NCBI GenBank assembly: GCA_900539715.1
Contig: UQDA01000013.1
Span: 8,235-72,234 of the forward strand
Source: an uncultured Lachnospiraceae bacterium
GTDB taxonomy: Bacteria > Bacillota > Clostridia > Lachnospirales > Lachnospiraceae
Length of the DNA stretch: 64,000 nucleotides
Direction: 5' to 3'
The position numbers and the translations under genes are program-made. Positions 6,186 to 61,059 of this stretch are shown here, one piece after another; position 1 is the stretch's first letter, and every line of letters begins with the position of its first letter. The notes under the pieces were generated by a model. The model made no database searches. It was given only the letters and a program-made list of their open reading frames with translations, and had not been told where the DNA came from.

Positions 6186-7631
6186 TCAGCCAATCAGCCA
6201 GTCATACATCTCCTGATATTTCTTTGCGGAAACATGCCATGAAAAATCTGCCGCCATCGCGCGGTCTACAATCTTATTCCATTCACGTTTTTTATCATAA
6301 TAGATACTCTCCGCATACCGGATAGTTCCCAACATTTCATGCGCGTTATAATTGTGGAAAGAAAATCCTGTCCCGGTTCCTTCGTATTCATTGTAAGGAG
6401 CAACCGTATCCTTTAATCCGCCCGTCTCGCGCACGATCGGCACCGTGCCGTAGCGCAGGCTCATCAGCTGGCTCAGGCCACAGGGCTCGAACAGCGAAGG
6501 CATCAGGAACGCATCACAGGATGCATAAATCCTGTGTGACAGCTCTTCGGAATAATAAATCTGTGCGGAAACCTTTCCGCCGTACTTCCATGCAAAATGA
6601 CGGAACATATTCTCATAGCGCTCTTCGCCTGTGCCGAGCACTACGATCTGTACATTGTCCTGACACAGCTCATCCATCACATAAGCAATGAGGTCAAAGC
6701 CTTTCTGGTCTGTTAAACGGGACACGATGCCTATCATCATCGTCTTGTCGTTCTGCTCCAGCCCAAGATCTGCCTGCAGGGCACGTTTATTTTTAATCTT
6801 CTCCTTGCGGAAATTCATCGCATTATAACGGTTCACGATATAAGGATCCGTTTCCGGGTTAAAATCGCCATAATCAATGCCATTCAAAATGCCGCGCAGG
6901 TCATGCTGACGCGCCTGCAGCAGTCCGTTCAAACCTTCGCCGTAAAAATCAGTCTTGATTTCTTCCGCATAAGTCGGGCTTACCGTCGTGATGGCATCCG
7001 CATATACAAGACCGCCCTTTAACAGATTCGCATCCTTATACGCTTCCAGCTTATCCGGTGCAAAGTAATAATCAGACAGCCCCGTTATTTCCTGCACGTC
7101 TTTAATGCTCCATTTACCCTGGAATTTCAGGTTATGAATCGTCATTACAGTCTTGATGCCTCTGTAAAAATCGCCCGCTGAAAACCGCTCATGCAGATAA
7201 ACGGGGATAAGACCTGTCTGCCAGTCGTGACAGTGGATCAGATCCGGTTTAAAATCGATGACCGGCAATATCGAAAGCGCTGCTTTTGAGAAAAACGCAA
7301 ATTTCTCAATTTCAAATAATGCATTATCACAATATGGTTTGAAACCATTAAAATAATATTCATTATCAATAAAATAATATTTGATGCCTTCATACTCGGC
7401 TTCCAGAATTCCCACATACTCGTTCTTCCAGTGAAACTCCATATAAAAATGGTCTCTGTAACGGAGCATATCCTTCTTATTCTGGCTCATGCAATTGTAT
7501 TTCGGCAGGATAACACGCACATCGTAATGCTCCTTGTCAAGGCATTTCGGCAAAGAACCTACAACATCCGCAAGCCCTCCGGTCTTGATAAACGGCACGC
7601 CCTCTGACGCAACAAATAAAATCTTTCTCAT
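6186..7631 (-). CDS. glgA: glycogen (starch) synthase
   Basis: MRKILFVASEGVPFIKTGGLADVVGSLP is the canonical GlgA N-terminal KTGGL motif, on a GT-B fold. The start is at 7631 with a GGGAGG RBS. Confidence 0.9.
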   Translation of the reverse strand: MRKILFVASEGVPFIKTGGLADVVGSLPKCLDKEHYDVRVILPKYNCMSQNKKDMLRYRDHFYMEFHWKNEYVGILEAEYEGIKYYFIDNEYYFNGFKPYCDNALFEIEKFAFFSKAALSILPVIDFKPDLIHCHDWQTGLIPVYLHERFSAGDFYRGIKTVMTIHNLKFQGKWSIKDVQEITGLSDYYFAPDKLEAYKDANLLKGGLVYADAITTVSPTYAEEIKTDFYGEGLNGLLQARQHDLRGILNGIDYGDFNPETDPYIVNRYNAMNFRKEKIKNKRALQADLGLEQNDKTMMIGIVSRLTDQKGFDLIAYVMDELCQDNVQIVVLGTGEERYENMFRHFAWKYGGKVSAQIYYSEELSHRIYASCDAFLMPSLFEPCGLSQLMSLRYGTVPIVRETGGLKDTVAPYNEYEGTGTGFSFHNYNAHEMLGTIRYAESIYYDKKREWNKIVDRAMAADFSWHVSAKKYQEMYDWLIG

Positions 7632-7735
7632 GATATGTCCTCCCAATTCATGTATTCCCTAAACCCTCTCCTATGCCATGCATAGACATTATAATTATTA
7701 TACATCATTCTTTTCTATTAGGAAAGGGGTTCTTC

Positions 7736-7764
7736 TTGCATTATTTCCGTATCTGTGCTATCTT
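7736..7764 (+). promoter_or_regulatory. sigma-A-type promoter (TTGCAT-17-TATCTT) for the EIIC-like gene
   Basis: Hexamers with 17-bp spacing sit about 50 nt upstream of the RBS. Confidence 0.4.
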
Positions 7765-7774
7765 AGCTTCATTC

Positions 7775-7792
7775 ACCTGTCTTGTCAGGTGT
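7775..7792 (+). promoter_or_regulatory. palindromic operator-like site CACCTGTCTTGTCAGGTG at the predicted TSS (candidate NiaR box)
   Basis: An inverted repeat CACCTG-N6-CAGGTG. It lies immediately downstream of the -10 element and next to the niaR gene. Confidence 0.45.
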
Positions 7793-7815
7793 AAATGCAC
7801 GAGGAGGAAGTTCAA

Positions 7816-8883
7816 ATGAAACAAAAAAACACGTTTTTTAATTTTCTGGAACGGAAAAATATTATTTTTTCCGCAAAAAGATATGGTATCGACGCCCTCG
7901 GTGCCATGGCGCAGGGACTTTTCGCATCTCTGCTCATCGGAACGATAATCGGAACGCTGGGAGAACAGCTCGGTTCTCAGCTCCTTATCGATATGGGAAG
8001 CTATGCAAAGTCCGTATCCGGCCCCGCTATGGCCATCTCCATCGGATATGCACTCTGTGCACCGCAGCTCGTCCTCTTTTCCCTTCTGGCAGTCGGAGCT
8101 GCCGCAAACACGCTTGGCGGTGCAGGAGGTCCGCTGGCTGTGCTGTTCGTTTCCATCATCGCAACAGAATGCGGTAAAGCGGTGTCCAAAGAGACAAAGG
8201 TAGATATCCTTGCAACGCCTCTTGTAACCATCTGCACAGGCGTCCTTTTATCCGTCTGGTGCGCGCCTGCCATCGGCACAGCCGCAAGCTCAGTCGGACA
8301 GCTCATTATGTGGGCCACCGAACTGCAGCCTTTCTTTATGGGAATCTTTGTTTCCGTTATCGTAGGTATCGCTCTTACCCTTCCGATAAGCAGTGCAGCC
8401 ATCTGCGCCGCTTTAAGTCTGACCGGACTTGCCGGAGGTGCCGCTGTCGCAGGATGCTGCGCGCAGATGGTCGGTTTTGCCGTAATGAGCTTTCGCGAAA
8501 ACCGCTGGAGCGGCCTTATATCACAGGGACTCGGGACAAGCATGCTACAGATGGGCAATATCGTCAAAAATCCGAGGATATGGATTGCGCCGACCCTCGC
8601 ATCCGCTATCACAGGTCCTATTGCCACCTGCATCTTCAAACTGCAGATGAACGGTCCTGCCGTATCCTCCGGCATGGGAACCTGCGGCCTCGTCGGCCAG
8701 ATAGGTGTTTATACCGGCTGGCTCTCGGATATCGCCGCCGGGACAAAATCCACTATTACGCCGATGGACTGGATAGGTCTCATCCTCATCTGCTTTATCC
8801 TTCCCGCCGTCCTCAGCTGGGGCTTTGGTCAGTTTTTCCGCAAGATAGGCTGGATAAAAGAAAACGACCTGAAGCTGGATTAA
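7816..8883 (+). CDS. PTS-EIIC_2-like polytopic membrane permease (possible vitamin/niacin transporter)
   Basis: About 10 TM helices. The N-terminus YGIDALGAMAQGLFASLLIGTI is typical of the PTS_EIIC_2 family. GAGGAGG RBS. Confidence 0.55.
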   Translation: MKQKNTFFNFLERKNIIFSAKRYGIDALGAMAQGLFASLLIGTIIGTLGEQLGSQLLIDMGSYAKSVSGPAMAISIGYALCAPQLVLFSLLAVGAAANTLGGAGGPLAVLFVSIIATECGKAVSKETKVDILATPLVTICTGVLLSVWCAPAIGTAASSVGQLIMWATELQPFFMGIFVSVIVGIALTLPISSAAICAALSLTGLAGGAAVAGCCAQMVGFAVMSFRENRWSGLISQGLGTSMLQMGNIVKNPRIWIAPTLASAITGPIATCIFKLQMNGPAVSSGMGTCGLVGQIGVYTGWLSDIAAGTKSTITPMDWIGLILICFILPAVLSWGFGQFFRKIGWIKENDLKLD

Positions 8884-9386
8884 ATCAAATATCCCTTTTT
8901 ACGGAGCTGCATTTCGATTTCGTCCAAAACGGATTCGGATGCAGCTTCTACTGTATGGAGATGTATCCCGTCTGAAATCGGAAACAGCGGTCCCGAGGTA
9001 CTGCGGGCGAGCCTTGCACAAAAACTTTTTACATCTGCCACAGTCGCAAGATTTAAATCCGCTCTTATCTGTCCGTACACATCATGCTCCACAACCACGT
9101 CCAGCACCCTTCCGCCGCTTTCTACCATCGTAAGCAGCTCGTCCCCTATCTGTTCTGAGGAATGCTTCACCAGAAAACTTCTCCGGCAGCGTTCCTGTGC
9201 CTGTCCGTACAGTACATATCCCTGTGCAGTGGCAAGCACAGGATATTCTGTGCGTAAAAGCGCCACATCCTGAACAATGATCTGTCTGCTTACCGAGAGC
9301 TGCTTTGCAAGCCTGCTTCCCGATACCGGCTCCTTTGCCTGTGCCAAAATTCTGATTATCTCTTCTCTTCTTTCCGTATTATTCAT
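8880..9386 (-). CDS. niaR: NiaR/YrxA-type transcriptional repressor (HTH + 3H domain)
   Basis: 168 aa with an N-terminal HTH and a C-terminal 3H domain. It is convergent with the EIIC-like gene, overlapping it by 4 bp. Confidence 0.75.
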   Translation of the reverse strand: MNNTERREEIIRILAQAKEPVSGSRLAKQLSVSRQIIVQDVALLRTEYPVLATAQGYVLYGQAQERCRRSFLVKHSSEQIGDELLTMVESGGRVLDVVVEHDVYGQIRADLNLATVADVKSFCARLARSTSGPLFPISDGIHLHTVEAASESVLDEIEMQLRKKGYLI

Positions 9387-9482
9387 CTGATTCCTCTGCT
9401 CCTGCTACATTTTCCTTTCCGTTGCAATTCGCATAATCGTATTTTTTTATCCGACAAGAAAACAACTTTCCAATCAAACAAA

Positions 9483-9514
9483 AAAACACAGCCCTTCCGC
9501 TGTGTCTGTTTCCT
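9483..9514 (-). terminator. orphan intrinsic-terminator-like hairpin (ACACAGC-N6-GCTGTGT + T7) oriented for the minus strand, about 100 bp upstream of niaR
   Basis: A 7-bp stem followed by TTTTTTTG on the minus strand. No annotated minus-strand gene lies upstream of it. Confidence 0.4.
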
Positions 9515-10664: not shown

Positions 10665-11414
10665 TTATTTGTAGTTTACGATCTTACCGAAGTCAGCTTT
10701 CAGAGAAGCGCCGCCTACCAGACCGCCGTCGATGTCAGGCTGTGCAAACAGCTCTGCAGCGTTGCCTGCGTTTACGGAACCGCCGTACTGAATACGTACT
10801 GCCTCAGCGGTATCTGTATCGTACATCTCTGCGATGCACTCACGAATGCCCTTGCAAACCTCTTCTGCCTGCTCGGTAGTAGCGGTTTTGCCTGTGCCGA
10901 TAGCCCAGATAGGCTCATATGCGATAACAATACCCTTTACCTGTTCAGCGGTAACGCCAGCCAGGTCGGATTTGATCTGCAGACGAATCCAGTCCATAGT
11001 AACGCCCATCTCTCTCTGCTCCAGAGACTCGCCGCAGCAAAGAATCGGAACAAGACCTGCTTCCAGAGCCTTCTTCACTTTCTTGTTCAGAACGCAGTCG
11101 CACTCTTTGAAGTAGTCACGTCTCTCGGAATGACCGATGATAACGTACTTAACGCCTGCATCTACCAGCATCTCAGCGGAGATTTCGCCGGTGTAAGCGC
11201 CCTTATCTTCAAAGTACATGTTCTCTGCGCCTACTGCTACGTTAGTGCCTTTTACAGCCTCAACAACAGGGATGATGTCGATAGCGGGTACGCAGTAAAC
11301 AACATCTACATCGTCAGATTTTACAACATCTTTTAAAGTGTTGCACAGTTCTACAGCCTGGCTGGGAGTCATATTCATCTTCCAGTTGCCGGCTACGATT
11401 TTTCTTCTTGCCAT
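10665..11414 (-). CDS. tpiA: triosephosphate isomerase
   Basis: Signatures AGNWKMN, IGHSERR and [11 protein letters not shown]. The start is at ATG 11412-11414 with an AAGGAGAG RBS. Confidence 0.95.
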
Positions 11415-11444
11415 TGGAATCACTCTCCTTGTTTAAATATAAAA

Positions 11445-11642
11445 CTTGCTTTCCTTACGAGAAACTTCAGAATTCCTCAACAGAATTCTGAAGTAGCGCA
11501 CTAAATAAGCTTTGCTTTCCTTGCGGGAAACTTCTAAATTCCTTTCAGGAATTCAGAAGTAGCGCAGAAAATAAGCTTCGCTTTCCTTACGAGAAACTTC
11601 TAAATTCCTTTCAGGAATTCAGAAGTAGCGCAGAAAATAAGC
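11445..11642 (-). repeat. three tandem 66-bp repeats, each encoding a 12-14-bp stem-loop, in the pgk-tpiA intercistronic region
   Basis: Units lie at 11445-11510, 11511-11576 and 11577-11642, and a fourth partial unit abuts the pgk stop. Units 2 and 3 are nearly identical. Unit 1 has different but still complementary arms. Confidence 0.85.
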
Positions 11643-11658
11643 TTCGCTTATTTTCTGC

Positions 11659-12882
11659 TTATTTGTCGTCAGCTGCTGCTACGCCGGGAAGCTCCTTACC
11701 CTCTAAGAATTCAAGGGAAGCGCCGCCGCCGGTGGAGATGTGGCTCATCTGAGCTGCGAAACCAAGCTGGTTTACTGCTGCTGCGGAATCGCCGCCGCCG
11801 ATAATGGTGGTAGCGTCTGTCTCAGCCAGAGCCTTTGCAACTTCGATAGTGCCCTTTGCAAGCACAGGGTTCTCAAATACGCCCATAGGTCCGTTCCAAA
11901 CAACGGTCTTAGCTGTCTTTGCAGCCTCAGCAAACAGAGCTGCGGACTTAGGACCGATATCCAGACCGATCTTGTCAGCCGGAATCTTGTCAGCGTCAAC
12001 ATACTCTACAGCGATTTCAGCGTCGATGGGGTTCGGGAAGCTTTCAGCTACAGCAGCGTCAACAGGAAGCAGCAGCTTCTTGCCAAGCTTCTCAGCCTTC
12101 TCCATCATCTCTTTGCAGTAGTCAAGCTTCTCTTCATCAACCAGAGACTTACCGATTTCCAGACCCTGTGCCTTTAAGAAAGTAAATGCCATACCGCCGC
12201 CGATGATAAGAGTATCGCACTTCTCAAGCAGGTTGGAGATAACGTTTAACTTGTCTGCAACCTTAGCGCCGCCCAGGATAGCTACGAAAGGTCTAACAGG
12301 GTTCTCAACCGCATTGCCCAGGAAGTTTATCTCCTTCTGCATCAGGTAGCCAACAACGTTGGAGCCGCCCTTTTCTGTGATGAATTTGGTAACGCCTGCA
12401 ACGGAAGCATGTGCTCTGTGAGAAGAACCGAATGCATCGCAAACGTAATCGTCTGCCAGATCAGCCAGCTCTTTGCTGAACTCTTCGCCATTCTTGGTCT
12501 CTTCTTTGCCGCGGAAACGGGTATTCTGCAGAAGAACAACGTCGCCGTCCTGCATGTTTGCAACTGCCTCTGTAGCAGCTTCGCCTGTCACGTTGTAATC
12601 AGCAACGAATTTTACTTCCTTACCCAGCTTCTCAGACAGTCTTACAGCTACGGGAGCCAGAGACTCGCCTTCGTTGGGGCCGTTTTTAACTTTGCCCAGA
12701 TGAGAGCAAAGGATAACTCTGCCGCCGTCGTTGATCAGCTTCTCGATTGTAGGAAGCGCTGCAACGATACGGGTTTCGTCTGTGATAACGCCGTCTTTCA
12801 GCGGAACGTTGAAGTCACATCTTACCAGAACTCTTTTACCTTTTACGTTGATATCATCAACGGATTTTTTGTTTAAGCCCAT
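11659..12882 (-). CDS. pgk: phosphoglycerate kinase
   Basis: 407 aa, full-length Pgk ([15 protein letters not shown]). GGAGG RBS. Confidence 0.95.
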
Positions 12883-12953
12883 GATAGGAACCTCCTGATT
12901 TGAAAATATATAAACGTATTATTTTATTCGGCAGGAAATAAACTTTCCTATCG

Positions 12954-12991
12954 AACAAAAAAGAGGTCCGGTCCTTATCAGACCGGACCTC
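12954..12991 (-). terminator. intrinsic terminator/attenuator hairpin between gap and pgk (GAGGTCCGGTC-N7-GACCGGACCTC + T6)
   Basis: An 11-bp stem followed by TTTTTTG on the minus strand. Confidence 0.7.
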
Positions 12992-13027
12992 CAATGGCCT
13001 ATGTCTTTATGCGAAGCGTTCAGACAA

Positions 13028-14047
13028 TTAAGCGTTCAGCAGTTTGCCGAAGTGCTTGATGGTGCGAACCATCTGGCTTGTGTAGGAGTTCTCGTTGTCG
13101 TACCAAGAAACAACCTGAACCTCAGCAAGGTCATCGCTGATAGGCAGAACCATGGTCTGTGTTGCATCGAACAGAGAACCAAACTTCATGCCAACGATAT
13201 CGCTGGATACGATCTCGTCTGTGTTGTAGCCGAAGGACTCGTTAGCTGCAGCCTTCATAGCCTCGTTGATAGCTTCCTTTGTAGGGTTGCCCTTAACAAC
13301 AGCTGTCAGGATGGTGGTAGAACCTGTAGGGGTAGGAACACGCTGAGCGGAACCGATCAGCTTGCCGTTCAGTTCAGGAATTACCAGACCGATAGCCTTT
13401 GCAGCACCTGTGCTGTTAGGAACGATATTAACTGCTGCTGCACGGGATCTTCTCAGATCGCCTTTTCTCTGAGGGCCGTCCAGAGTCATCTGGTCGCCTG
13501 TGTAAGCGTGAATGGTGCACATGATACCGGACTGGATCGGGAATGCATCGTTCAGAGCCTTAGCCATAGGTGCCAGGCAGTTGGTTGTGCAGGATGCAGC
13601 GGAGATGATGGTATCTTCGTTTGTCAGAGCCTCATGGTTTACGTTGTAAACGATGGTAGGCAGATCGTTGCCTGCGGGAGCAGAGATAACAACGTGCTTA
13701 GCGCCTGCATCGATGTGAGCCTGTGCTTTAGCCTTAGATGTGTAGAAGCCTGTGCACTCCAGAACTACATCTACGCCGATTTCGCCCCAAGGAAGCTCTG
13801 CAGCGTTAGCCTTTGCATAAATTTTGATCTCTTTGCCATCAACGATGATGGAATCCTCACCTGCTTCAACCTTATCAGCCAGTGCATATCTGCCCTGTGT
13901 AGAATCATATTTCAGTAAGTGAGCCAGCATCGCGGGAGATGTCAGGTCGTTGATTGCAACGATCTCAAATCCTTCTGCGCCAAACATCTGTCTGAAAGCC
14001 AGACGACCGATACGGCCAAAACCATTGATTGCTACTTTTACTGCCAT
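13028..14047 (-). CDS. gap: type I glyceraldehyde-3-phosphate dehydrogenase
   Basis: [15 protein letters not shown] and [10 protein letters not shown] motifs. Confidence 0.95.
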
Positions 14048-16107: not shown

Positions 16108-17421
16108 TTACAGCTCGATATTTTCTTCCCAAAATTTATGGGTCGCCGGAAAAAATTCTCCGAACCCCAGGTCCTCCATACTGATACGCACCGTTGAAAC
16201 ATCCGTCATATCTGCTTTCAGGTGTATCCGCGTCGTCCTTGCCGGACGTTTTGGAATCCCCGAAAGCGTCACCAATACTTCCCGCACCGATTTTCCATCA
16301 AGCGGGGTGATACGCAGCGAAAAGCTTTCCTCATCCTCCAACAGAAATTCAGTCTCCGCCGAAACCTCATACCAGTTGACGCCCGCGTCCAACAGCGCCA
16401 GGTACCTGTCCTGCCCCTGAACTGTCACCGGTATCCCTACGTTGGCTTTTAACATATCCTTCCCCAGAAAGGCATATCCATCGGAAATTCCTCCCGGCAC
16501 AAGACGCTGACGCGCTGCATAGCACGCTCCCTTGCTGTAAAGGTTGCTTCCCAAAAATACGCGTCTGTCCTGACACAAAAACTGCAGCGAGCCCTGATAC
16601 CACTCGCCGTCAAATCCGTCACCTATCAGATAAACGCAGCTTACATTTCTTCCTTCAAGTACCTCCCCGACAGCAGCCTGAAACCTGCGGTCAAGAAATA
16701 TCTTTTCATTCTCCGCTGATTCCTTCTCCCGGCTCAAAGGGCGTACCTCGGGCCAATCCTTTTCTTCTACAAAACAAGCCACCGGTGTCGTTTTTTTATT
16801 TGCCATAAATATAAGCGTCCTTAAATGGCTTCCTGTGAAATCGCACAAAAGCACATCCCTGCGCCACAGCTCCTCCGGTTGGCTGATATTATAGTAAAAA
16901 AAGCTCTCCGCCCTGCCTATCACATAAATCTGCGCCTTCGGTAATCCCAAAAGCTTTGCTGCTTCTCCGAGCGCTTCTAAAATCTGCGGCGTCACCTGCT
17001 CAACAGAGAACACGAGCGCATCCATCCTTTCCGCCCGCACCGACGGCGCCAGCAGGGACAATACCCGCTTTAAGAACAAAGACAACAGTCCGACCGCCTC
17101 AAAGCGTTCCTCACCGACCTCGATATCCTGCCGTCGCACCGCATGCTCCAAAAGTCCGGAAACCAGAAGCGCCTCTCCATTTTCTGACGCCTCCAGCGCC
17201 TTTTCCCCAAACAGCCACACATCCCTCTCGGCACACCGCGCAAGGACAGCCGGAATCCGATATTGCTCCTCATCCGCCCGGCAGCTCACAGTTTCCGGCT
17301 GTCTGCCCGGCAGACAATAGCTGAGCAGGACACCTCCATCTGTCAGATCGAGCCCCGCTGCAGTCACATCCTCGCCTTTTTTCCCTTCGCCACGATGTTT
17401 TTCCCTGTAATCCAGAAACAT
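16108..17421 (-). CDS. hypothetical actin/Hsp70-fold ATPase-like protein
   Basis: 437 aa. The N-terminus AGLDLTDGGVLLSY resembles the Hsp70/actin phosphate-1 motif. VLLCDFTGSHLRTLIF resembles phosphate-2 (DxGGGT). AAGGAG RBS. The gene is translationally coupled to the upstream gene by a 12-nt gap. Confidence 0.65.
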   Translation of the reverse strand: MFLDYREKHRGEGKKGEDVTAAGLDLTDGGVLLSYCLPGRQPETVSCRADEEQYRIPAVLARCAERDVWLFGEKALEASENGEALLVSGLLEHAVRRQDIEVGEERFEAVGLLSLFLKRVLSLLAPSVRAERMDALVFSVEQVTPQILEALGEAAKLLGLPKAQIYVIGRAESFFYYNISQPEELWRRDVLLCDFTGSHLRTLIFMANKKTTPVACFVEEKDWPEVRPLSREKESAENEKIFLDRRFQAAVGEVLEGRNVSCVYLIGDGFDGEWYQGSLQFLCQDRRVFLGSNLYSKGACYAARQRLVPGGISDGYAFLGKDMLKANVGIPVTVQGQDRYLALLDAGVNWYEVSAETEFLLEDEESFSLRITPLDGKSVREVLVTLSGIPKRPARTTRIHLKADMTDVSTVRISMEDLGFGEFFPATHKFWEENIEL

Positions 17422-17433
17422 CCCATCAACTCC

Positions 17434-20400
17434 TTACTCCAAAATGCCAAACAGCCTCTCCGCACAAAAAGACTGATACAGGTAACGCACAAGCCCTTCT
17501 GATGCCTCCCGGGCATTCCGGGAAAGCTTCGCCTGCGCAACGCTGCAAAGCTGCCCGTATCTGCTGTCCTGCGCGGATGCCGGACACCCCTCGGCCTTTA
17601 ACAGACCGCTTTCCAGAATGGTCCCGGGCTCATCTGCCGCCGTCACGAAATACTGCAGATTTTCCCCCGGAAACAGGATAAATGCAGCCGTATAAATACA
17701 GCCGCCCGCGCACAAAAATTCCCTTGTCTCGTAATCTCCTGCTGGCGTCTGCTCCGATACCGTACGCCAATGAAGCAGCGGACGCTTTCCTTCTTTTCCA
17801 TAATAAACCACAAAGGTCTTATCCTGAAGAAGCCCCGCCTGTGCAGTCAGATCGCCCAGTTCTTTTAAAACCGGCACAATGCAGTTTCCGGCAAACAGCT
17901 GCTCTGCTGTCTCACACAGAAGCCCTCTGTCCTTTTCCGAAAAAAGCTGACGGTTTTTCGCATAATATTCCAGAACCGCAATTCGGCACAGCTCACTGAC
18001 CGGCTCCTTTTGCCCCAGCTGCTTCAAAATAGCATGTATCGCAGCGGTATGAACGGGCATATGCTCCACCACGCCGCTGTAGGCGCAACGATGCAAAAAT
18101 GCCAGAAGGAGCTGTCCATGCCCGCCCCCCTTCATGTACTGGCGCAGGATATCCATCCGCTCCGTCACGTCTATCCCCGCAAAAAGCATCTGTCCCATCA
18201 TGCGCCTGCAAAGCTGCCAGGTATCCACGCCAAATCCTTCCGCCTCGCGCTTTATTACTTCCAGCTCCGCAATGCTCCCTTCATACCAGTCCGTCAGCTC
18301 CTGCAAAATACGCGCGTCATATTTTCCTCCCAGCGCCGCCTGCGCACACAAAGCCGTCATCCGCTTCTGCCCGGAAAAAAGTCCCCGCTCTAAAAGTCCC
18401 GTCCCCAACCGCAGCAAAATCCCCGGTTCCAGACGAGACAGCTCCTCTCCTTCCAGCCATTGATATGCCTTTTCATAAAAACCCTGCATCACCAGCATGC
18501 CTGTCACGCTCAAACATTCCTCAGAGCTGACCTGTTCTTTTTCCAGATTTCTCAAAAAGCTGCGAAGCTGTTTTTCTCTGCCTGCTTTTTGCAGATATGC
18601 TGCCAGCCTGCCCCTTACTTTACGGGCATAATATTCTTCCAGACGGGGTTCTCCTGCAAGCGCTTCATAGCAGCTTTCGTTTTCTGCGCATATCTCCCCC
18701 TGTCCTTCCGCAGCAGAAATGCGGAACACAAGGCTGTCCTTCCCCCATTCCAGAAGCTCCTGCTCATTCCATACCGCAAGGATCTCCTTTTTTTCAAAAA
18801 GAGGGGTTAACTGCGCCTTTTCGTTTACCACACAGCGATTCTGTTCTTCATCCTCCGTGAGTAAAAGCATCTCTCCGCCATATCTGCTGATACACGCCCT
18901 TCCCTTCTGGAGAAGCCATACTTCCTCACCCTTTATCTGCCTGTGCAGAACCACCAGTTTTTTGCCCCGGCGGGCATTCTCCTGCTCCGGCACAAAAATC
19001 TCTTCACTCCCAAAGAGCTCTGCCAGCATGGCTCCCTGCGCTGCTTCCACCCTCCCGCTCTGCAGATTACGACGGTACAGCCATGCCAAATCCCTGTTTA
19101 CTCTTCCTTTGTAAAGACAATCCTCCAAAAATCTGTCTATCTGCGGCTTGTATGTGATATAAAGCTCTGTATCCTCATCCCTGCGCTCATCCACGCAGGC
19201 ATACAGATACGCCGCGTATTCCCAGTCAAGATTGCTCTGGTAGGCAAAATACAAAAGAACGCTTTTGGGAAGCTCTCTCCGCTCCGACAGATCCATTGTC
19301 ATCAGATAATATTCATAAAGCCTCGTCACACGCAGCCGGTTTTCCACACCCCGTTCATACCACACATGATATGCTTTTTCACGCACGCCCCCTTTTATCA
19401 AAAGAGTACATATCGCCCACAGAATATCCGTATTCCTGTCTTTTTCCCAGATAAGGCGCAGTATTTCAAACAGCGTCCGGTCAAAATATTTCTCGCGTCC
19501 GGCGAGCTCTGCCAGCTGCCCTTCCAGATTCTCAGAAACTATCCCCTGCCTTGCGCCGTAGGCCAATATCTGCTTCACAACGCCGTCAAATCCCGTCAAA
19601 AGAGCCGGTTCCGCATTTAAAAGCTGCATTGCTTCCAGATACATCACCGGACTTTTACAGCCCTTTTCAAACTGTTCCATCAAAAACTGCCACTTCCGGG
19701 ACGCGCTGTGATTTAAGTTCCGGGACAAAAACAGCAACAGCCACGCTATCCGCCATTCCCGGGGATGCTGTGCAAATACTTCTTCAACCTTTGCGCATAC
19801 CCTGCGCGTATATGTTTCATCTTTTTTATAGAGGGAAACAAGATACAGATAATAACATCCCGTCACGACGTCCGCTTCTTCTACAAAAGGCTTTGCCTGC
19901 TTTAAGACCCATCCTGCCTCCTCATTTTTTTGCTGTGTCAAAAGAAGCTGAGCCAAAAAAAGTTTAGATACAGCGCGTTGTCTGTCGCAGTGGGCCATCC
20001 GTTCCACGCATTCCTGTGTTTTTGCCTGCCAGGATGCCGCATCCGTCTTTTTCATCCGAAACTGCTGATACAACGTTACAAGTTTTAAGATACATGCCTT
20101 AAACTCCCGATCTCTCCGATCCTTTATCTTACGCTGCATCGTGCTGCGCCGTGCCTCCACCTCGACCGCAAAGCTGCCGCCCTTCCAGGAAAAGCATATC
20201 CGCCCGAAATTATTTCCGTCATGCATCCTTTCTTCATTCAAAAAAACCGGAATGCGGCACAAATTTCCCAGAAAATCATCCTCGCCTATCCTGCTTTTTT
20301 CCAGCGTTAAAAAATCGCCCTGTGCCTCTACGGTCAGATGCACCGGCCCCCATCCGTTTTTTAGTACCTGTATCTCCTCGCTCATTGTCTCCCGGATTTC

Positions 20401-21066
20401 AGGAATCTGTATCCGGCTTCTTACCGCAGAAAAACCGACAGGCTGCTTTTTGCCGAGCGCCGCCAGAAATTCCTCCACATTCGCTTCATTTCCAAAACTC
20501 ACGGACAAACCTCTGTAGAGCAGGGCTGTTTCTTCCTCCCCCTCACACAGCCGCGCAAAGTCCTTCGTATAAAAGAGCTTTACCGCCTCCTGCCAGTTAT
20601 TGCGGGCAAGTCCTGCAAATTCCGTCATGTCCCGTATCTCGCCCTGAGAGGAAATGACCGCCTCCTCCCGCACGATGACCTGCCATGGAACTTCATATTC
20701 CCCATAATTTGACAGCACAAAAAAACGCCCGCTGCGGCTCTCCCCCGGCTCCATACCGGAAGCATCGAACCGATAGACTATCTGCTCCTGCATCCCGTTA
20801 AACCGCGGAGACGGACACGTCATCCTCTCATCTCCTGTAGAAATAATCCCGACAGCCGGCTGCTCTGCCCCCGCTGCTGCCGCAAAGCTCCCCTCTGCAA
20901 CCTGACCCGGACGCACAAAAAGCTCCGCCTGCTTCACCGAAAAATATAACTTTCCCTCTATCCTGCGATAACCCTCTGCCAAAATCTGTTCTTCCAGTTT
21001 CCTCACAGCGCGGAACTCTCCTTTCTCGTGCCACAAACGGCAGGCGTTTGAGGCTGCAGCGAACAA
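17434..21066 (-). CDS. hypothetical 1210-aa protein with an N-terminal beta-sandwich-like region and a roughly 850-aa C-terminal helical repeat region
   Basis: A long uninterrupted ORF. The ORF track starts at a TTG, but the likely true start is the GTG at about 21015, preceded by AAAGGAGAG. There is no TM segment or signal peptide. Confidence 0.65.
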   Translation of the reverse strand: MFAAASNACRLWHEKGEFRAVRKLEEQILAEGYRRIEGKLYFSVKQAELFVRPGQVAEGSFAAAAGAEQPAVGIISTGDERMTCPSPRFNGMQEQIVYRFDASGMEPGESRSGRFFVLSNYGEYEVPWQVIVREEAVISSQGEIRDMTEFAGLARNNWQEAVKLFYTKDFARLCEGEEETALLYRGLSVSFGNEANVEEFLAALGKKQPVGFSAVRSRIQIPEIRETMSEEIQVLKNGWGPVHLTVEAQGDFLTLEKSRIGEDDFLGNLCRIPVFLNEERMHDGNNFGRICFSWKGGSFAVEVEARRSTMQRKIKDRRDREFKACILKLVTLYQQFRMKKTDAASWQAKTQECVERMAHCDRQRAVSKLFLAQLLLTQQKNEEAGWVLKQAKPFVEEADVVTGCYYLYLVSLYKKDETYTRRVCAKVEEVFAQHPREWRIAWLLLFLSRNLNHSASRKWQFLMEQFEKGCKSPVMYLEAMQLLNAEPALLTGFDGVVKQILAYGARQGIVSENLEGQLAELAGREKYFDRTLFEILRLIWEKDRNTDILWAICTLLIKGGVREKAYHVWYERGVENRLRVTRLYEYYLMTMDLSERRELPKSVLLYFAYQSNLDWEYAAYLYACVDERRDEDTELYITYKPQIDRFLEDCLYKGRVNRDLAWLYRRNLQSGRVEAAQGAMLAELFGSEEIFVPEQENARRGKKLVVLHRQIKGEEVWLLQKGRACISRYGGEMLLLTEDEEQNRCVVNEKAQLTPLFEKKEILAVWNEQELLEWGKDSLVFRISAAEGQGEICAENESCYEALAGEPRLEEYYARKVRGRLAAYLQKAGREKQLRSFLRNLEKEQVSSEECLSVTGMLVMQGFYEKAYQWLEGEELSRLEPGILLRLGTGLLERGLFSGQKRMTALCAQAALGGKYDARILQELTDWYEGSIAELEVIKREAEGFGVDTWQLCRRMMGQMLFAGIDVTERMDILRQYMKGGGHGQLLLAFLHRCAYSGVVEHMPVHTAAIHAILKQLGQKEPVSELCRIAVLEYYAKNRQLFSEKDRGLLCETAEQLFAGNCIVPVLKELGDLTAQAGLLQDKTFVVYYGKEGKRPLLHWRTVSEQTPAGDYETREFLCAGGCIYTAAFILFPGENLQYFVTAADEPGTILESGLLKAEGCPASAQDSRYGQLCSVAQAKLSRNAREASEGLVRYLYQSFCAERLFGILE

Positions 21067-44146: not shown

Positions 44147-45541
44147 TTACACTGCTTTCCTTTCTCTATATTCTCTGACCTTCTTTACAAATTTTTCTGC
44201 AAACACAGGATTAGAGGGATAATACAAATGCGGAAATCCGGCAAAACAGTTTCCTTTTTCTATGATACAGGGGTAACTTTTTCCTGTCACCGGTTTTACC
44301 GCCAGACAATCCTCTCCATTATCTTCACTGTCATAATAATGAAATTCATGCCCCCGTATCATTTCGCCTTTCGGTAAAAAATCACCATTTACCCCTACCA
44401 ATTCTATGTATCCGAAACGAACCAGCTTCCCGGTATTATAACATTTTGCAGGCAAAACTTCCGTCATTGTATACTCCTTGTTTTCTTTATCTGCAATGGC
44501 TGAATGAAGGTACATAAATCCGCCGCATTCTGCAACAATAGGCATATTATTTTCCGCTGCCTTTTTGATAGCATGGAGCATCGTTACATTTTGGCCCAGT
44601 TTATCTGCATACAGTTCCGGGTATCCCCCACCAAGCAGAATTCCGCAGCAGCCATCCGGCAAACCATTATCATGAAGCGGCGAAAAATACTCTATTTTTG
44701 CACCGCATTCTTTCAGCAAATCCAGATTATCCTCATAGTAAAAACAAAAAGCCTCATCCTTTGCCACCGCTATCACAGGTCTGTTTTCCCCCTCTGCCGC
44801 ACCTGCCTGCGTATCTGTAATCACAGGGAAGCCTTCCAGCTCTTCCGCATTTTCTGCCAGTTGAAGCACTGCATCTAAAGAAACAGTTTTTTGCAACTGT
44901 TCAGAACTCTCCTGCAACTGCTCTCTGATATCCGCTATCTCATCCGGCATCATCAATCCCAGATGTCTGCTTCCTACATGAAACTCTTTATGATCAGGAA
45001 AATATCCTAAAACAGCAATTGATAATTCCTGTTCTATCAAGGGCTTTATCATTTCATAATAGGACTTGGACATTCTGTTTAAAATAATACCTTTGATCAG
45101 CTTCTCCTTATCATACGCAAGAAATCCCGCAATCAGAGAAACCACGGAGCGCCCCATTCCTTTGGCATCTACCACTAAAATAATCGGTGTTTTCGTAACC
45201 TTCGCCAAATGATACGATGAAGCTTCCTCCCTGATGCCCCCCAGTCCATCAAAAAGCCCCATAACCCCTTCCAGTATGACGACCTCATCTTCTTTTCTGT
45301 TTTTCAGAAATAACTTTCGCGTTGTTTCCTCATCCGTAAAAAACGTATCCAGATTTTTAGCCGGAACATCAATCACCTTTTGATGGAACATCGGATCAAT
45401 ATAATCCGGTCCGCATTTATAGGAGATCACTTTTCTCCCTGCATTCTTAAAAGCCTGCAACAGACCGCAGGTAATGGTTGTCTTTCCGCTCCCGCTCCCG
45501 GGTGCGGCAATCATAACCCGATCCAGTTTCATTTCAAACAC
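44147..45541 (-). CDS. cbiA: cobyrinate a,c-diamide synthase
   Basis: An AAPGSGSGKTT P-loop and a C-terminal GATase domain. Confidence 0.9.
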   Translation of the reverse strand: MFEMKLDRVMIAAPGSGSGKTTITCGLLQAFKNAGRKVISYKCGPDYIDPMFHQKVIDVPAKNLDTFFTDEETTRKLFLKNRKEDEVVILEGVMGLFDGLGGIREEASSYHLAKVTKTPIILVVDAKGMGRSVVSLIAGFLAYDKEKLIKGIILNRMSKSYYEMIKPLIEQELSIAVLGYFPDHKEFHVGSRHLGLMMPDEIADIREQLQESSEQLQKTVSLDAVLQLAENAEELEGFPVITDTQAGAAEGENRPVIAVAKDEAFCFYYEDNLDLLKECGAKIEYFSPLHDNGLPDGCCGILLGGGYPELYADKLGQNVTMLHAIKKAAENNMPIVAECGGFMYLHSAIADKENKEYTMTEVLPAKCYNTGKLVRFGYIELVGVNGDFLPKGEMIRGHEFHYYDSEDNGEDCLAVKPVTGKSYPCIIEKGNCFAGFPHLYYPSNPVFAEKFVKKVREYRERKAV

Positions 45542-45586
45542 TCCTCCTTTCCTATACCCGGCATCTGTAATATCCCTTCCGGTCTT

Positions 45587-47614
45587 TTATCCGCAAAAAT
45601 CAAATGAACAAATCCACACGGGATTTTCTGCCTGCATCAAATGATACGTTCCAACACGCTTTGCCCTGCTTGCCTGTATTTGTACCACATCCTCATTTTG
45701 AATGGGAAACGCAGACAAAACCTCTTTAATTTCACAAATCGTTTCCATGCTGATCGCATTGATCACGACACGCATTTGAGAATTCTTCTGATATAATGCC
45801 GAAAGAATTTCTTTCATCCTCCCACTGCTGCCACCGATAAATGCATGCGTTGGTACCGGCAATTCTTCTAATCCATCCGGGGCTTTACCTGAAACAATTT
45901 CTATATTATCCAGCCCAAATTTTTCTTTATTTTGAGCAATCAGGGAAACCGCTTCCTCCTTATATTCCACGGCAAATACCTTAATTTCATCAGAAAGTCC
46001 GGCAATCTCTGCCGCAACGGAACCTGTTCCGCTTCCGATGTCATATACCACCGCGCCCTCATATAATTTTAACTTGCAAATACTTACTTCTCTTACCTCT
46101 TCTTTGGTCATAGGAACCTTATCCCGTATAAACTCCCCATCTTTCCTTCCATGAGTCAGCGTCTTTCTTTCCGGATCTGGATTTTTGATACAGCAGATAT
46201 ACAAACCATCCTCCTGTAATTGCATACATTCTTCCGGTCTAAGTTCCATGATCCGTTGTTCCGGGTATGACAACTGATATCCCGCGGTCACCGTACACTC
46301 CGTCAATCCGGCATTCAGCAACAGCTTTCCCAGTTTATGAACGTCTCTCAGTCCCGACATTAACAAAAAGAGCCTCTTTCCCTTGCGGATTTTTTTTGCC
46401 AGATCAGGCAACTCTTTTCCATGCATGCTGCAAATCACCGCATCCTGATAATTCTCCCCCATGCATGCCGCTAAGTAGGCAACAGAAGAGATTCCCGGCA
46501 TAACCGTAACGTCCGCCTGCAGTCTGCCATCATTTACCGCCCTTAGCAATGCGTCATACAGCTTCTGACAGCCACTATAAAAACCGGTATCTCCGGAAAA
46601 AAGAATCACGGTTTTTATATCATCCCTGCCGATTGTTCCTTTTGACATTTTCTCCAAATAGGGAATGATCTGTTCTGAGGTATAATATGGCATCTTCTCT
46701 ATTTTAGGCTGATACCCTGCAATCATTCTGTCTGCTCCAAGCAAAATATCTGCTTCTGCGATTGCCCTTTCAACCTCTTTGGTCAGACAATCCGGATTTC
46801 CCATCCCGATACCTGCAAGAGTTATCCGGAATCCGGTTTTTCTCCTGATCACCTGACCGCAAATCTTTTCCAGCTGCCCGCAGACTTCTTCAAACGTATG
46901 ACATTCCTGTTCTGCCGGACACCCTATCACAAATACCGGAATATCCAGATTTTGTGCCGCATCCAGTTTTTCCTGATATCCTCCGGCATTTCCGCTTGCC
47001 TTTGTCACCAGCCATTTTATCTGATACTGCCTCAGCATCGCTTCATTCATCTGCGTAGAAAACGGTCCCTGCAACGCTAAAATCTGCCTGCCTGCAATTC
47101 CGCAATCCATACAAAGCTGCAAGCTCTCTATTCCAGGTAAAACCCGGGCATAGAGTCGTTCCTTTTTGTCGATAAACTTAACAAAAACAGAAAGTTCTTT
47201 GCTGCCTGTTGTAAGTAAAATATTTCCATCTGTTTTTTCCAAAGCCCTTGCACAGGAAACGCTATCTTTAAAATACTGTATTTTTTCATAAGAGCTGGTT
47301 ACATTGCTTTCTCTCTTTAAACGCAAATAAGGAATATCCATATCCTGCATGGCACGTCTGATATTCTGTGTTACCACTTCCGCATAAGGATGAGTGGCAT
47401 CTACTACAGCCCCGAAATTGCCGTTCTTAATATAGATCTCCATTTCCTCCCGGTCCATCCTGCCTTCATGGACTTTTACACAGGGATGCTCCTTTAACAC
47501 AATTTTACCATATTCGGTAGCCACGCACAGGGTATGTGCGATTCCTGCCGCCGCCAAATACTCCGATAATTCTCTACCTTCCGTTGTTCCTGCAAAGATC
47601 AGTATTTCTTTCAA
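45587..47614 (-). CDS. cbiJET: fused precorrin-6A reductase / precorrin-6Y C5,15-methyltransferase (decarboxylating) CbiJ-CbiE-CbiT
   Basis: An N-terminal CobK-like domain (IFAGTTEGRE), a central tetrapyrrole methylase domain, and a C-terminal CbiT class-I methyltransferase (DIGSGTGS). Confidence 0.8.
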   Translation of the reverse strand: MKEILIFAGTTEGRELSEYLAAAGIAHTLCVATEYGKIVLKEHPCVKVHEGRMDREEMEIYIKNGNFGAVVDATHPYAEVVTQNIRRAMQDMDIPYLRLKRESNVTSSYEKIQYFKDSVSCARALEKTDGNILLTTGSKELSVFVKFIDKKERLYARVLPGIESLQLCMDCGIAGRQILALQGPFSTQMNEAMLRQYQIKWLVTKASGNAGGYQEKLDAAQNLDIPVFVIGCPAEQECHTFEEVCGQLEKICGQVIRRKTGFRITLAGIGMGNPDCLTKEVERAIAEADILLGADRMIAGYQPKIEKMPYYTSEQIIPYLEKMSKGTIGRDDIKTVILFSGDTGFYSGCQKLYDALLRAVNDGRLQADVTVMPGISSVAYLAACMGENYQDAVICSMHGKELPDLAKKIRKGKRLFLLMSGLRDVHKLGKLLLNAGLTECTVTAGYQLSYPEQRIMELRPEECMQLQEDGLYICCIKNPDPERKTLTHGRKDGEFIRDKVPMTKEEVREVSICKLKLYEGAVVYDIGSGTGSVAAEIAGLSDEIKVFAVEYKEEAVSLIAQNKEKFGLDNIEIVSGKAPDGLEELPVPTHAFIGGSSGRMKEILSALYQKNSQMRVVINAISMETICEIKEVLSAFPIQNEDVVQIQASRAKRVGTYHLMQAENPVWICSFDFCG

Positions 47615-48344
47615 GTTGATAACCTCGTTTCGTAATCAGTTTTCCGTTTACGAGCTCTGAACCGGAATTGCCTATAAAAACCGTGGTAAACATATTCACC
47701 TGTGTTTCTCTTAATTCCTTCAAGGTGCAGGTTACTGCCTTTGTCCCTTCCCTGCCAATATTTTCCACATATCCGCAGGGTCTGTCCTCCTCTATCACAC
47801 GAAGCAGAATATCGCAGGCCCGCATTAAATAATCTTTTCTTTTATGACTGGACGGATTATAAATTGCCATGGCAAAATCACCCTCTGCCGCAGCTGTCAG
47901 CCGTTTCTCTATTTTCTCCCAGGGTGTCAGCAGATCGCTTAAACTGATCACACAAAAATCATGATTCAGCGGCGCCCCCAAAACTGCCGCTCCGCTGTTC
48001 GCTGCAGTAATACCGGGAATTACAATAAGCTCCGTTTCCGGATATTCTTTTCCCATCTCATACATCAAAGATGCCAGTCCATAAATTCCTGCATCGCCGC
48101 TGCAGATCAATGCTACCCTCTTCCCTTTCGCCGCTTCTTCAAAGCATAGCCTGCAACGCTCCGTTTCCTGCCGCATGGGCGTGACCAGCATTTCTTTTCC
48201 TGCAAAACGCTCCCCCAGTAACTTCACATAAACAGTATAGCCGATGATAACATCTGAATTCTCCAGACCCCAAATTGCTTCTCCGGTCATCATTTCTTCT
48301 TTTCCCGGGCCTATTCCTATGATATATATCTTACTTTTCATCAA
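47574..48344 (-). CDS. cbiH: precorrin-3B C17-methyltransferase
   Basis: Tetrapyrrole methylase fold (IIGIGPG). Confidence 0.8.
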   Translation of the reverse strand: MMKSKIYIIGIGPGKEEMMTGEAIWGLENSDVIIGYTVYVKLLGERFAGKEMLVTPMRQETERCRLCFEEAAKGKRVALICSGDAGIYGLASLMYEMGKEYPETELIVIPGITAANSGAAVLGAPLNHDFCVISLSDLLTPWEKIEKRLTAAAEGDFAMAIYNPSSHKRKDYLMRACDILLRVIEEDRPCGYVENIGREGTKAVTCTLKELRETQVNMFTTVFIGNSGSELVNGKLITKRGYQLERNTDLCRNNGR

Positions 48345-49470
48345 ATCTTACGCTCCATTCTCTTTTCGCAACGGCAATGGTCATGCCATCCTCGGCATGC
48401 TTTTTATATACAAGACTGCCGCCATCCTGACAGGCAAAAAGCGCCGCCCGCTCACACACATTATCCACTCCTACCTGCTCCATTACAAAGTCTGAAGCGC
48501 TAAAGTCACCATCCGTCTGCTGTAACTGCTCCGCAGTATAAGTCCAAAATGGAATTTGTTTTTTTCTGCACCATGCAGTCAATCCTGCCTCATCCTTTTT
48601 CTTATCTATGGACGCCACTGCCATAATCTGCTCTGTCAAAATCCCGCAATTGTCCAGATTCTTCAAAATGAACTGATTTATTTTCTCTTCTTCTTTTCCT
48701 CTTTTACATCCTATTCCAATGATATATTCTTTCGGCTTTAAGGTTAATAATGCTCCCTTTGTCTCCGTTTTTACAGAAATCACCACATCTGCCTTCCTGT
48801 CTTCCATAGTTTGAAACTCAGAAACAACGATTCCATCCGGTATTCTGATATTCTCAGCCAAATGTCCCTGCTCTACTGCCAAATGAATTTCTTTTCCGGA
48901 CAACACTTTAGACGATACCTTTGCAATCCCGTCTCTATTCTCAATATGTAACCCGTTTCTTTTCGCAAATAAATCCACTGCAAATTTACAGTTTATATCC
49001 GTTGCCGTTGTAATTACAGGAATGGCGCCCATTTTTTCTGCAATCTTTATCGCTATTTCATTCGCTCCTCCCACATGCCCCGATAGAATCGGAATAATAT
49101 AATTTCCGTCCTCATCCATTACCAGGACAGCGCTGTCATGCAATTTATCCACGACACCCGGCGCAATTGCTCTGACGGCAATCCCACAGGCTCCAACAAA
49201 CAGCAACGTATGCTTTTCTGTCATCTGTTTTCCTGCCCACTCCACCACATTTTCTTCTACATATTGTGTCATGGGCAGATTTGTCCTTTCCTTTGCCGCA
49301 GAGCATTTTGTAAACAGTTCTACATTATCATCGTTCAAAACCTCTGCTACCTTTTGCGACAACCTTATTCCTTTTTCTGTAAAGCTGATGCATCTGATCT
49401 CCATAAAGCTATTCCTTTGCCTGTCTGAATTCTGTCGAAAAATCCGGAGCATACAATCTGGATTTTTCAT
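48331..49470 (-). CDS. cbiG: cobalt-precorrin-5A hydrolase
   Basis: CbiG N-terminal and C-terminal domains. This is the anaerobic-pathway marker. Confidence 0.75.
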   Translation of the reverse strand: MKNPDCMLRIFRQNSDRQRNSFMEIRCISFTEKGIRLSQKVAEVLNDDNVELFTKCSAAKERTNLPMTQYVEENVVEWAGKQMTEKHTLLFVGACGIAVRAIAPGVVDKLHDSAVLVMDEDGNYIIPILSGHVGGANEIAIKIAEKMGAIPVITTATDINCKFAVDLFAKRNGLHIENRDGIAKVSSKVLSGKEIHLAVEQGHLAENIRIPDGIVVSEFQTMEDRKADVVISVKTETKGALLTLKPKEYIIGIGCKRGKEEEKINQFILKNLDNCGILTEQIMAVASIDKKKDEAGLTAWCRKKQIPFWTYTAEQLQQTDGDFSASDFVMEQVGVDNVCERAALFACQDGGSLVYKKHAEDGMTIAVAKREWSVRFDEK

Positions 49471-50167
49471 ATCCCCGATGCGCTATCACATCACCAACTA
49501 ATATCAGCGCTGTTTTTGTGATCCCATGTGCCGCTGCCGTTTCTTCCAGACCCTCAATCGTACAAATATAGCTTTCTTCCTCAGGCCAGGTTGCCTTATA
49601 CACAATTGCTGCCGGGGTATCCTTTCGGTAACCGCCTGCTATCAGCCTTTTGCTCAGTTCCCCCAGCATCCCCGTACTTAAATAAATCGCCATAGATGTC
49701 TGATGCGCGGCAAAGCTTTCGATACCTTCTTTATCCGGCACCCTGGTTTTTCCTTCCATACGGGTAATGATCAAAGACTGTGAAACCTCCGGCAGAGTAT
49801 ACTCCAAATTAAGAGAGGCTGCTGCTCCGAAGCAGGCGCTGACTCCCGGACAACTTTCATACGCAATTCCTAATCTGTCCAATTCATCCATTTGTTCCCG
49901 TACCGCTCCATAAATGCTTGGATCGCCGGTATGCAGCCGAACAATCTTTTTATTCTGTACCGCTGCTTTATGCATTATATCGATCACTTCATCCAGCGTC
50001 AGCCTCGCACTGTTATAAATCTCACAGTTCTCCCTGGCATATTTTAAAAGCTCCGGATTTACCAAGGAACCGGCGTAGATGATCACATCTGCCTGCTCAA
50101 GCAAGCGCATTCCTCTTACTGTAATCAGATCTGCTGCTCCTGTTCCTGCTCCAACAAAGAAAACCAT
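49409..50167 (-). CDS. cbiF: precorrin-4 C11-methyltransferase
   Basis: VFFVGAGTGAADLIT and GDPSIYG. Confidence 0.85.
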   Translation of the reverse strand: MVFFVGAGTGAADLITVRGMRLLEQADVIIYAGSLVNPELLKYARENCEIYNSARLTLDEVIDIMHKAAVQNKKIVRLHTGDPSIYGAVREQMDELDRLGIAYESCPGVSACFGAAASLNLEYTLPEVSQSLIITRMEGKTRVPDKEGIESFAAHQTSMAIYLSTGMLGELSKRLIAGGYRKDTPAAIVYKATWPEEESYICTIEGLEETAAAHGITKTALILVGDVIAHRGYEKSRLYAPDFSTEFRQAKE

Positions 50168-51261: not shown

Positions 51262-51287
51262 AGCCTTCCTCCAACATCCTGCGCGCT

Positions 51288-52950: not shown

Positions 52951-52968
52951 CAGCCGCTCACTTCCCTT

Positions 52969-53943: not shown

Positions 53944-53951
53944 TTATTTCC

Positions 53952-54581: not shown

Positions 54582-54961
54582 ATCACCCGCACCACCTCAT
54601 CTGCCTGCTCCGCCAGTTTTATCAGAATCCTTCCTGTCCGCTCTCTGTATTCCCGTTCAAAACTGTCTATAGGCACAATTCCATTTCCAATCTCATCACT
54701 AATCACAATACAGCCGGGAGCATTGCTTATAAATTCCAGTACTTCCTGCTCTATATTTTCCCCCTGCCTGATACCTGCCTTCATCCACTCATGAAAGTGA
54801 TTCAGAATGACGGTCTTTCCGTTATCCTTTGATTCCTGTAATTGTTCTGCATCCGGAAATTCACCGTCTACAATACAAAAATCTGTTACTCTTTTTCCCT
54901 CAAGTACATAATCCAATTTTCCTTGAGCATATCCGCCAATTACCAGCTTCATCTGATCCAC
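54554..54961 (-). CDS. truncated CobU-like protein (degenerate P-loop GGYAQGKL)
   Basis: 135 aa. The N- and C-termini align to CobU, but it lacks about 45 internal residues and the Ser/Thr of Walker A. Confidence 0.5.
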   Translation of the reverse strand: MDQMKLVIGGYAQGKLDYVLEGKRVTDFCIVDGEFPDAEQLQESKDNGKTVILNHFHEWMKAGIRQGENIEQEVLEFISNAPGCIVISDEIGNGIVPIDSFEREYRERTGRILIKLAEQADEVVRVICGIGQRIK

Positions 54962-54968
54962 CTCTTCC

Positions 54969-58902: not shown

Positions 58903-58924
58903 AGATTCTTCATGCCTTTCTTCA

Positions 58925-61047: not shown

Positions 61048-61059
61048 ATAATTCCTCCT

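Follow-up and report, generated by a model that had tools for sequence, protein, structure and literature searches.

Among the steps of bacterial vitamin metabolism, the uptake of niacin belongs to the less well understood, and the locus analyzed here poses a question that bears directly on it. Namely, what does a permease of the PTS_EIIC_2 family do in a place where a niacin-responsive repressor is encoded right next to it and a palindrome of the type recognized by that repressor lies in front of it? The locus is found in a stretch of 64,000 nucleotides (64 kb) from an uncultured Lachnospiraceae bacterium, which we call the window throughout. The best explanation of the evidence, and in our judgment quite probably the correct one, is that the permease is a putative niacin transporter of the NiaY type, repressed by NiaR and operating independently of the PTS. 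The features on which the discussion turns are the following, in the coordinates of the window:

6186-7646, minus strand: glycogen/starch synthase gene, divergent from niaY
7736-7741, plus strand: -35-like hexamer TTGCAT, predicted by direct reading, agreeing with TTGACA at 3 of 6 positions
7756-7764, plus strand: extended -10 element TGcTATCTT (TGn followed by TATCTT), predicted by direct reading
7772-7793, no strand assigned: predicted 22-bp type I NiaR operator, TTCACCTGTCTTGTCAGGTGTA, from matrix score and published motif
7801-7807, plus strand: ribosome-binding site GAGGAGG, by direct reading, 8 nt before the ATG at 7816
7816-8883, plus strand: niaY, encoding a 355-aa polytopic membrane protein of family PF13303 (PTS_EIIC_2), from Pfam, BLASTP and an AF2 model
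8880-9386, minus strand: niaR, encoding a 168-aa niacin-responsive repressor (HTH_11 and 3H domains), from Pfam and the match to solved NiaR
9484-9507, upstream of niaR: hairpin ACACAGC-CCTTCC-GCTGTGT, flanked by an A-run and a T-run

The palindrome is where the first-pass annotation had placed it, at the predicted transcription start: direct reading gives a perfect inverted repeat with arms CACCTG (7774-7779) and CAGGTG (7786-7791) around TCTTGT, the arms spanning 7774-7791, inside a 22-bp box with the core TGTCTTGTCA. Taken by itself, a repeat of six plus six letters is not rare, since six inverted pairs occur within the 191-bp intergenic stretch that was searched. What chance does not explain is its agreement with the NiaR motif. 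In particular, a scoring matrix built from 30 distinct sites, all of them from other genomes, has the consensus TACAGGTGTCTTGTCACCTGTA, equal to the published type I NiaR motif, and in a scan with it the window box reaches 24.8 bits, whereas no other position in the 64 kb scores above 11.7. The palindrome thus conforms, as a predicted site, to the published type I NiaR operator, which is what had been claimed for it. The operator of S. pneumoniae niaX, TACWRGTGTMTWKACASYTRWAW (for example, TACAATTGTCTTGACAATTGTA), has been verified by mutagenesis, as has the repression of niaX by NiaR, and the window box matches it at 17 of 22 positions in a hand count against the quoted consensus; the core TGTCTTGTCA, in turn, is identical to that of the published F. 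nucleatum nadABC site. The 18-mer palindrome has no second copy in the 64-kb window with up to 3 mismatches allowed, and neither the mismatch search nor the matrix scan reveals a second NiaR site there. A riboswitch or other RNA leader was also considered and set aside, Rfam giving no match in the 64-kb window.

The elements around the box suggest how it might act. TATCTT (7759-7764) follows TTGCAT after a 17-nt spacer and is preceded by a TGn extension (TGc, 7756-7758), and the box begins 8 nt past this -10 element and thus spans the predicted transcription start. That said, the promoter had been described as near-consensus, and this wording was too strong. The two hexamers and their spacing are indeed present, but TATCTT agrees with TATAAT at 4 of 6 positions, the two hexamers together reach 7 of 12 consensus matches, and the pair was not among the calls of a consensus promoter scan. 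The nearest genome locus (L001) keeps the block CTGTGCTAT-TT and has TTGAAA as a TTG-type -35 element at the equivalent position and with the same 17-nt spacing. Because of the TGn in front of the -10 element and this conservation, the weak hexamer pair is still a plausible promoter, and we take it, together with the transcription start, as the predicted one for niaY. Translation most credibly begins at the ATG at 7816, which lies 8 nt after the ribosome-binding site and agrees with the N-termini of homologues; the longest open reading frame opens upstream, at the ATG at 7795, and this ORF-maximal start was dropped on the same two grounds. The promoters of glgA and niaY both lie within a common intergenic region of 170 bp. 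On its other side, the niaY-niaR pair is also flanked by a row of glycolytic genes, gap-pgk-tpiA (10665-14047, minus strand).

Is the neighboring gene really niaR? Its product consists of HTH_11 and 3H domains by Pfam and matches the solved NiaR of T. maritima (1J5Y/9EBR) with an E-value of 1e-43 and that of B. halodurans (7CV0) with 2.9e-38. What is more, the alignment to 1J5Y/9EBR shows that the KH...E and HLH ligand positions have been retained, and it is the His/Glu/His-x-His residues of NiaR that bind metal and nicotinate (PMC7713382), nicotinic acid being the effector of this repressor (PMC2330245; PMC7713382). Judged by its domains, its matches and these residues, the gene adjoining niaY is a bona fide NiaR, just as the first-pass annotation had named it. 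Also as described there, the two genes end convergently: the stop codon of niaY occupies 8881-8883, and the genes overlap by the 4 bp TTAA at 8880-8883. As for autoregulation, no box was found upstream of niaR in the window. The hairpin at 9484-9507 is the minus-strand terminator of the preceding small ORF, and the niaR promoter is therefore confined to about 9387-9480, a stretch that holds no NiaR box.

Turning to the permease, PF13303 covers its full length (1.4e-91; 307 bits against a Pfam cutoff of 28.9), so a PTS_EIIC_2-like permease does lie downstream of the palindrome; no NCBIfam model matches it, and hydropathy distinguishes about nine separate hydrophobic segments. [quoted passage not shown] NiaY was assigned there as a candidate niacin transporter, a prediction made from genomics only (PMC2330245), and later genomic work counts it among three "known" B3 transporter families (PMC6593275). 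In the published data, NiaR sites precede niaY in B. clausii, Exiguobacterium and C. difficile, A. metalliredigens has the cluster nadABC-niaR-niaY, and every genome with niaY also has pncB but neither niaP nor niaX (PMC2330245).

The A. metalliredigens cluster provides the link to the window. Starting from an Alkaliphilus MAG, a search for homologues recovered a PF13303 protein of A. metalliredigens QYMF whose gene lies 16 bp behind nadA, nadB, nadC and a regulator with HTH_11 and 3H domains. Since this context equals the published nadABC-niaR-niaY cluster, we identify the QYMF gene as niaY. The window protein is 44% identical to its product, end to end over 347 aa (BLASTP, E 5e-84), and on account of this identity to the protein at the A. 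metalliredigens niaY position, the window gene belongs, by homology, to the NiaY family. The link runs via the A. metalliredigens orthologue rather than the prototype BH3254, and no B. halodurans protein is among the matches listed in the homologue searches. Further afield, a homologue is found in Fusobacterium, a genus on the published NiaY list, and in Acetoanaerobium noterae and in one of the loci compared below (L043, with pncB-niaR-niaY) the homologue is clustered with niaR. It had been suggested that the permease may represent an uncharacterised vitamin-transporter family. As regards a new family, this does not stand, because the family is NiaY of 2008; in the experimental sense it does, since the literature we searched contains no transport or binding assay of any NiaY. 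Put differently, the NiaY family and its predicted role are already known, and what is new here is one more member.

Does NiaR control extend beyond this one genome? The test that suggests itself is whether the palindrome also precedes other promoters of NAD metabolism. The window has neither a second site nor NAD genes (no nad or pnc gene, and no niaP or niaX, among its Pfam-scanned ORFs), and the test was therefore moved to relatives. We compared the 80 closest genome loci, with homologues 67-84% identical and 895,710 bp in all, which are mostly MAGs of Lachnospiraceae and other Clostridia and also include Coprococcus comes, Butyrivibrio and Flavonifractor. A search of these 895,710 bp for the 10-bp core TGTCTTGWCA gives 31 occurrences, of which 28, spread over 27 loci, fall within 300 bp upstream of a homologue, which amounts to an enrichment of about 300-fold. 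In a matrix scan of the same loci, 29 of the 80 upstream regions score above the 99th percentile of the background. Of the remaining three occurrences of the core, the first is found 59 bp before nadA in a nadA-nadB-nadC-niaR operon of Coprococcus comes (L007), the second before pncB, where the cluster reads pncB-niaR-[box]-transporter (L043), and the third upstream of niaR (L014). A. metalliredigens and an Alkaliphilus MAG likewise have the box in front of nadA, and in Acetoanaerobium noterae it lies between niaR and the transporter gene. Moreover, in 14 of the 80 loci a niaR gene lies no more than 6 kb from the homologue, often in the arrangement niaR-[box]-niaY. In relatives, then, the palindrome does stand before other NAD-metabolism promoters, those of nadA and pncB.

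That said, about 50 of the 80 closest homologues lack a recognizable NiaR box within 300 bp upstream by the matrix scan, and none was seen upstream of the PF13303 homologues in Photobacterium, F. vincentii, B. thuringiensis, Listeria and L. eligens. NiaR control therefore marks only a part of the family. Within that part, a box conserved before the family, before nadABC and before pncB, together with a bona fide niaR alongside, supports the proposal that the permease is under NiaR control as a putative niacin transporter. As a separate observation, six loci (L006, L016, L020, L026, L027 and L031) with 74-76% identical NiaY genes are titled as MAGs of Bacteroidaceae, Bacteroidales or Eggerthellaceae, but the contigs are probably mis-binned Clostridia and not true transfers. 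One representative at 50% identity (P0151) sits in a Bacteroidota-like context without NAD genes and was set aside as uninformative.

What, then, is the relation of the permease to the PTS? A confident AlphaFold (AF2) model built on 25 homologues (pLDDT 86.5, pTM 0.79) is all-helical and membrane-like, and its three best matches in the PDB are glucose-type PTS EIIC domains, namely 8QSR (PtsG; TM 0.60, probability 1.00), 9LGT and a PtsG model, after which the next structural match falls to a probability of 0.30. As far as the model can tell, the permease has an EIIC-like fold. A sequence search against solved chains gives no significant match of the permease, EIICs included. In agreement with the claim that PTS partners are missing nearby, neither the permease itself nor the Pfam-scanned ORFs of the window contain EIIA, EIIB, HPr or EI; the ORFs scanned are those of at least 150 aa, that is, the main non-overlapping ORFs across the 64 kb, and smaller ones within about 5 kb. 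The inspected Alkaliphilus clusters are likewise free of PTS components. Since no such genes are fused or nearby, the partnership with EIIB and EIIA, which is the defining trait of an EIIC, is not seen here; for all its likeness to EIIC, the permease ought not to be classed among the components of a sugar PTS. The NCBI product name across the family is nevertheless "PTS sugar transporter subunit IIC". One could go a step further and propose that NiaY is an EIIC-fold protein that has departed from the PTS altogether and become a stand-alone carrier for a vitamin that cannot be phosphorylated, nicotinate or nicotinamide. We would give this proposition an even chance; if it is true, the blanket label is wrong for a large clade of gut Clostridia.

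The mechanism that we propose for the locus is as follows. When niacin is plentiful, a dimer of NiaR, a protein that binds zinc and nicotinate, would take up nicotinate as corepressor and bind 7772-7793; sitting just past the -10 element and over the predicted start, it would block transcription of niaY. When niacin is scarce, NiaR would leave the operator and NiaY would be made. With about 9-10 helices in a PTS-EIIC-like fold, NiaY would then import nicotinate and/or nicotinamide without phosphotransfer, presumably as a facilitator or a secondary carrier, and the substrate would be trapped by PncA/PncB and converted to NaMN. Facilitated or ion-coupled transport is presumed because niacin cannot be phosphorylated by the PTS. 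The comparison of genomes lends good support to the regulatory half of this model, whereas the transport half is carried over, by inference, from the prediction of 2008.

The junction of the two genes may add a further layer. Namely, no terminator is present between the convergent genes in the window, and with the 4-bp overlap each transcript should therefore run antisense into the other gene. Transcriptional interference between the repressor and its target is thus possible in the window, and one possibility is that derepressed niaY transcription, running antisense through niaR, would reinforce its own induction. In the closest relative (L001), niaY and niaR lie 77 bp apart (7060-7135), with a strong bidirectional hairpin between them (AATGAGGTA...TACCTCATT).

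Would a different reading account for these observations equally well? One may grant NiaR control of NiaY and still suppose that its cargo is another NAD-related compound (nicotinamide only, nicotinamide riboside or mononucleotide, quinolinate or a pyridine analogue), or that the protein is an exporter. After all, only the regulatory link is the established part of the case, NiaR regulons elsewhere include pnuC, a nicotinamide riboside transporter, and the literature, in its discussion of NiaX, is openly unsure about the substrate specificity of the predicted niacin transporters. However, the effector of NiaR is nicotinic acid itself, niaY has in the published genomes pncB for constant company and neither niaP nor niaX (PMC2330245), and one of the loci compared (L043) has pncB-niaR-niaY. 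An exporter fits poorly: silencing of the gene by its repressor at high niacin is what an importer calls for. We therefore hold a different cargo or direction to be unlikely, albeit not negligibly so. Another alternative would be a genuine sugar PTS enzyme IIC with EIIA and EIIB encoded elsewhere, the NiaR box being incidental or a case of cross-regulation. The Pfam family name, the EIIC-like fold, which PtsG matches best, and the NCBI annotation all speak for it, as does Lachnospira eligens, where a fruA (fructose EIIC)-HPr-ptsP cluster is followed after about 1.3 kb by a homologue with 69% identity (L089). Yet this copy has no NiaR box, and between it and the PTS genes come a gene for peptide deformylase and a gap of 555 bp; neither EIIB nor EIIA is fused to the protein or encoded beside it in the window or in any inspected neighborhood, the Alkaliphilus gene is embedded in operon-like nadABC-niaR clusters, and the roughly 300-fold enrichment of the box upstream of the family is hard to square with an incidental site. 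Given, in addition, a TM-score of only 0.60 and no sequence match to any solved EIIC, we consider a sugar permease very improbable.

The close relatives of the protein carry yet another label, since JGI and UniRef name them "regulatory protein (pfoS/R)", and one could accordingly think of a PfoR-like membrane regulator or sensor that transports nothing. These database labels suggest that PfoR of Clostridium perfringens, as we presume, falls into the same Pfam family as NiaY. The gene pfoR was first proposed as a regulator of perfringolysin O, but a pfoR mutation is reported to have had no effect on pfoA expression (Awad and Rood 2002, via PMC4448169). The window protein, for its part, consists almost entirely of membrane helices in a transporter fold, with no DNA-binding or signaling domain, and a regulator or sensor in its place is hardly credible. 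Finally, the palindrome could have arisen by chance or serve some other regulator, with niaR next to it by coincidence. Short inverted repeats are indeed common in this intergenic region, and the window offers no second site for comparison; against this stand the distance in matrix score between the box and the next best position, its retention at the same position in many genomes and its presence before nadA and pncB, all of which make this reading extremely improbable. We thus return to a NiaR-repressed, PTS-independent putative niacin transporter as the reading that we prefer.

Two other parts of the window deserve mention as observations in their own right:

16108-21066, minus strand: two adjacent large genes, encoding DUF5716_C (437 aa) and DUF5717 (1210 aa, 807 bits) proteins
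44147-63832, minus strand: cobalamin biosynthesis/salvage cluster, running off the window end

The cobalamin cluster comprises CbiA/CobQ, CbiJ-CbiE/T, CbiF/H/L-type methylases, CbiG, CbiD, CbiC and CobD, and further CbiB, CobC, CobS, CobU, CobT and CbiK, along with a FecCD/ABC/periplasmic-binding-protein transporter. No cobalamin riboswitch is found in the window by Rfam at the gathering threshold; as the cluster runs off the window end, its leader may lie outside.

The interest of the niaY locus goes beyond a single genome. A 2019 reconstruction of the gut microbiome found a B3 transporter (NiaP, NiaX or NiaY) for only about 25% of the predicted B3 auxotrophs (PMC6593275). Homologues of NiaY are common among Lachnospiraceae and other Clostridia of gut and rumen, with more than 8000 candidates scored per homologue search, and the widespread copies in gut Clostridia are, as a matter of routine, wrongly annotated as parts of a sugar PTS. 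With a perfect NiaR operator and an adjacent niaR, the window locus supports a correction of this annotation. It is also a convenient construct for a first experimental test of NiaY, and such a test would show whether the EIIC fold can serve as a PTS-independent vitamin carrier.

It is instructive to place the locus among the systems that it resembles. PfoR differs in context, adjoining a toxin gene and not NAD genes, and is a protein without demonstrated function (PMC4448169). EIIC of the PtsG type (8QSR) is the best structural match to the window permease, and Pfam names PF13303 an EIIC family; unlike PtsG, however, the permease has no EIIB or EIIA fused or neighboring and no match to it in sequence, its presumed substrate offers no hydroxyl to phosphorylate, and it is accompanied by a vitamin repressor and not by sugar regulators. 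The niacin transporters NiaP (MFS) and NiaX (an ECF S-component) share with NiaY the same regulatory logic and the same type of operator, whereas their protein families and folds are unrelated to it. Experimental support exists for NiaP and NiaX only, the role of NiaP in niacin uptake having been verified in B. subtilis (PMC2330245). From NiaY as published, the window locus differs in three respects. Its host is an uncultured Lachnospiraceae-type organism outside the 2008 set, its niaY is convergent with niaR with a 4-bp overlap and does not form an operon with it, and Pfam and the present model put the family with PTS EIIC, whereas in 2008 it was described as having "no detectable similarity" to proteins then known (PMC2330245). 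The likeness to NiaY (BH3254) lies in a polytopic protein with about nine hydrophobic segments, a type I NiaR box in front of its gene and niaR alongside. The box itself, finally, finds its counterpart in B. subtilis nadB, where the NiaR site overlaps the -10 element and the transcription start: the geometry is the same, the window box starting 8 nt after the -10 element and lying over the predicted start.
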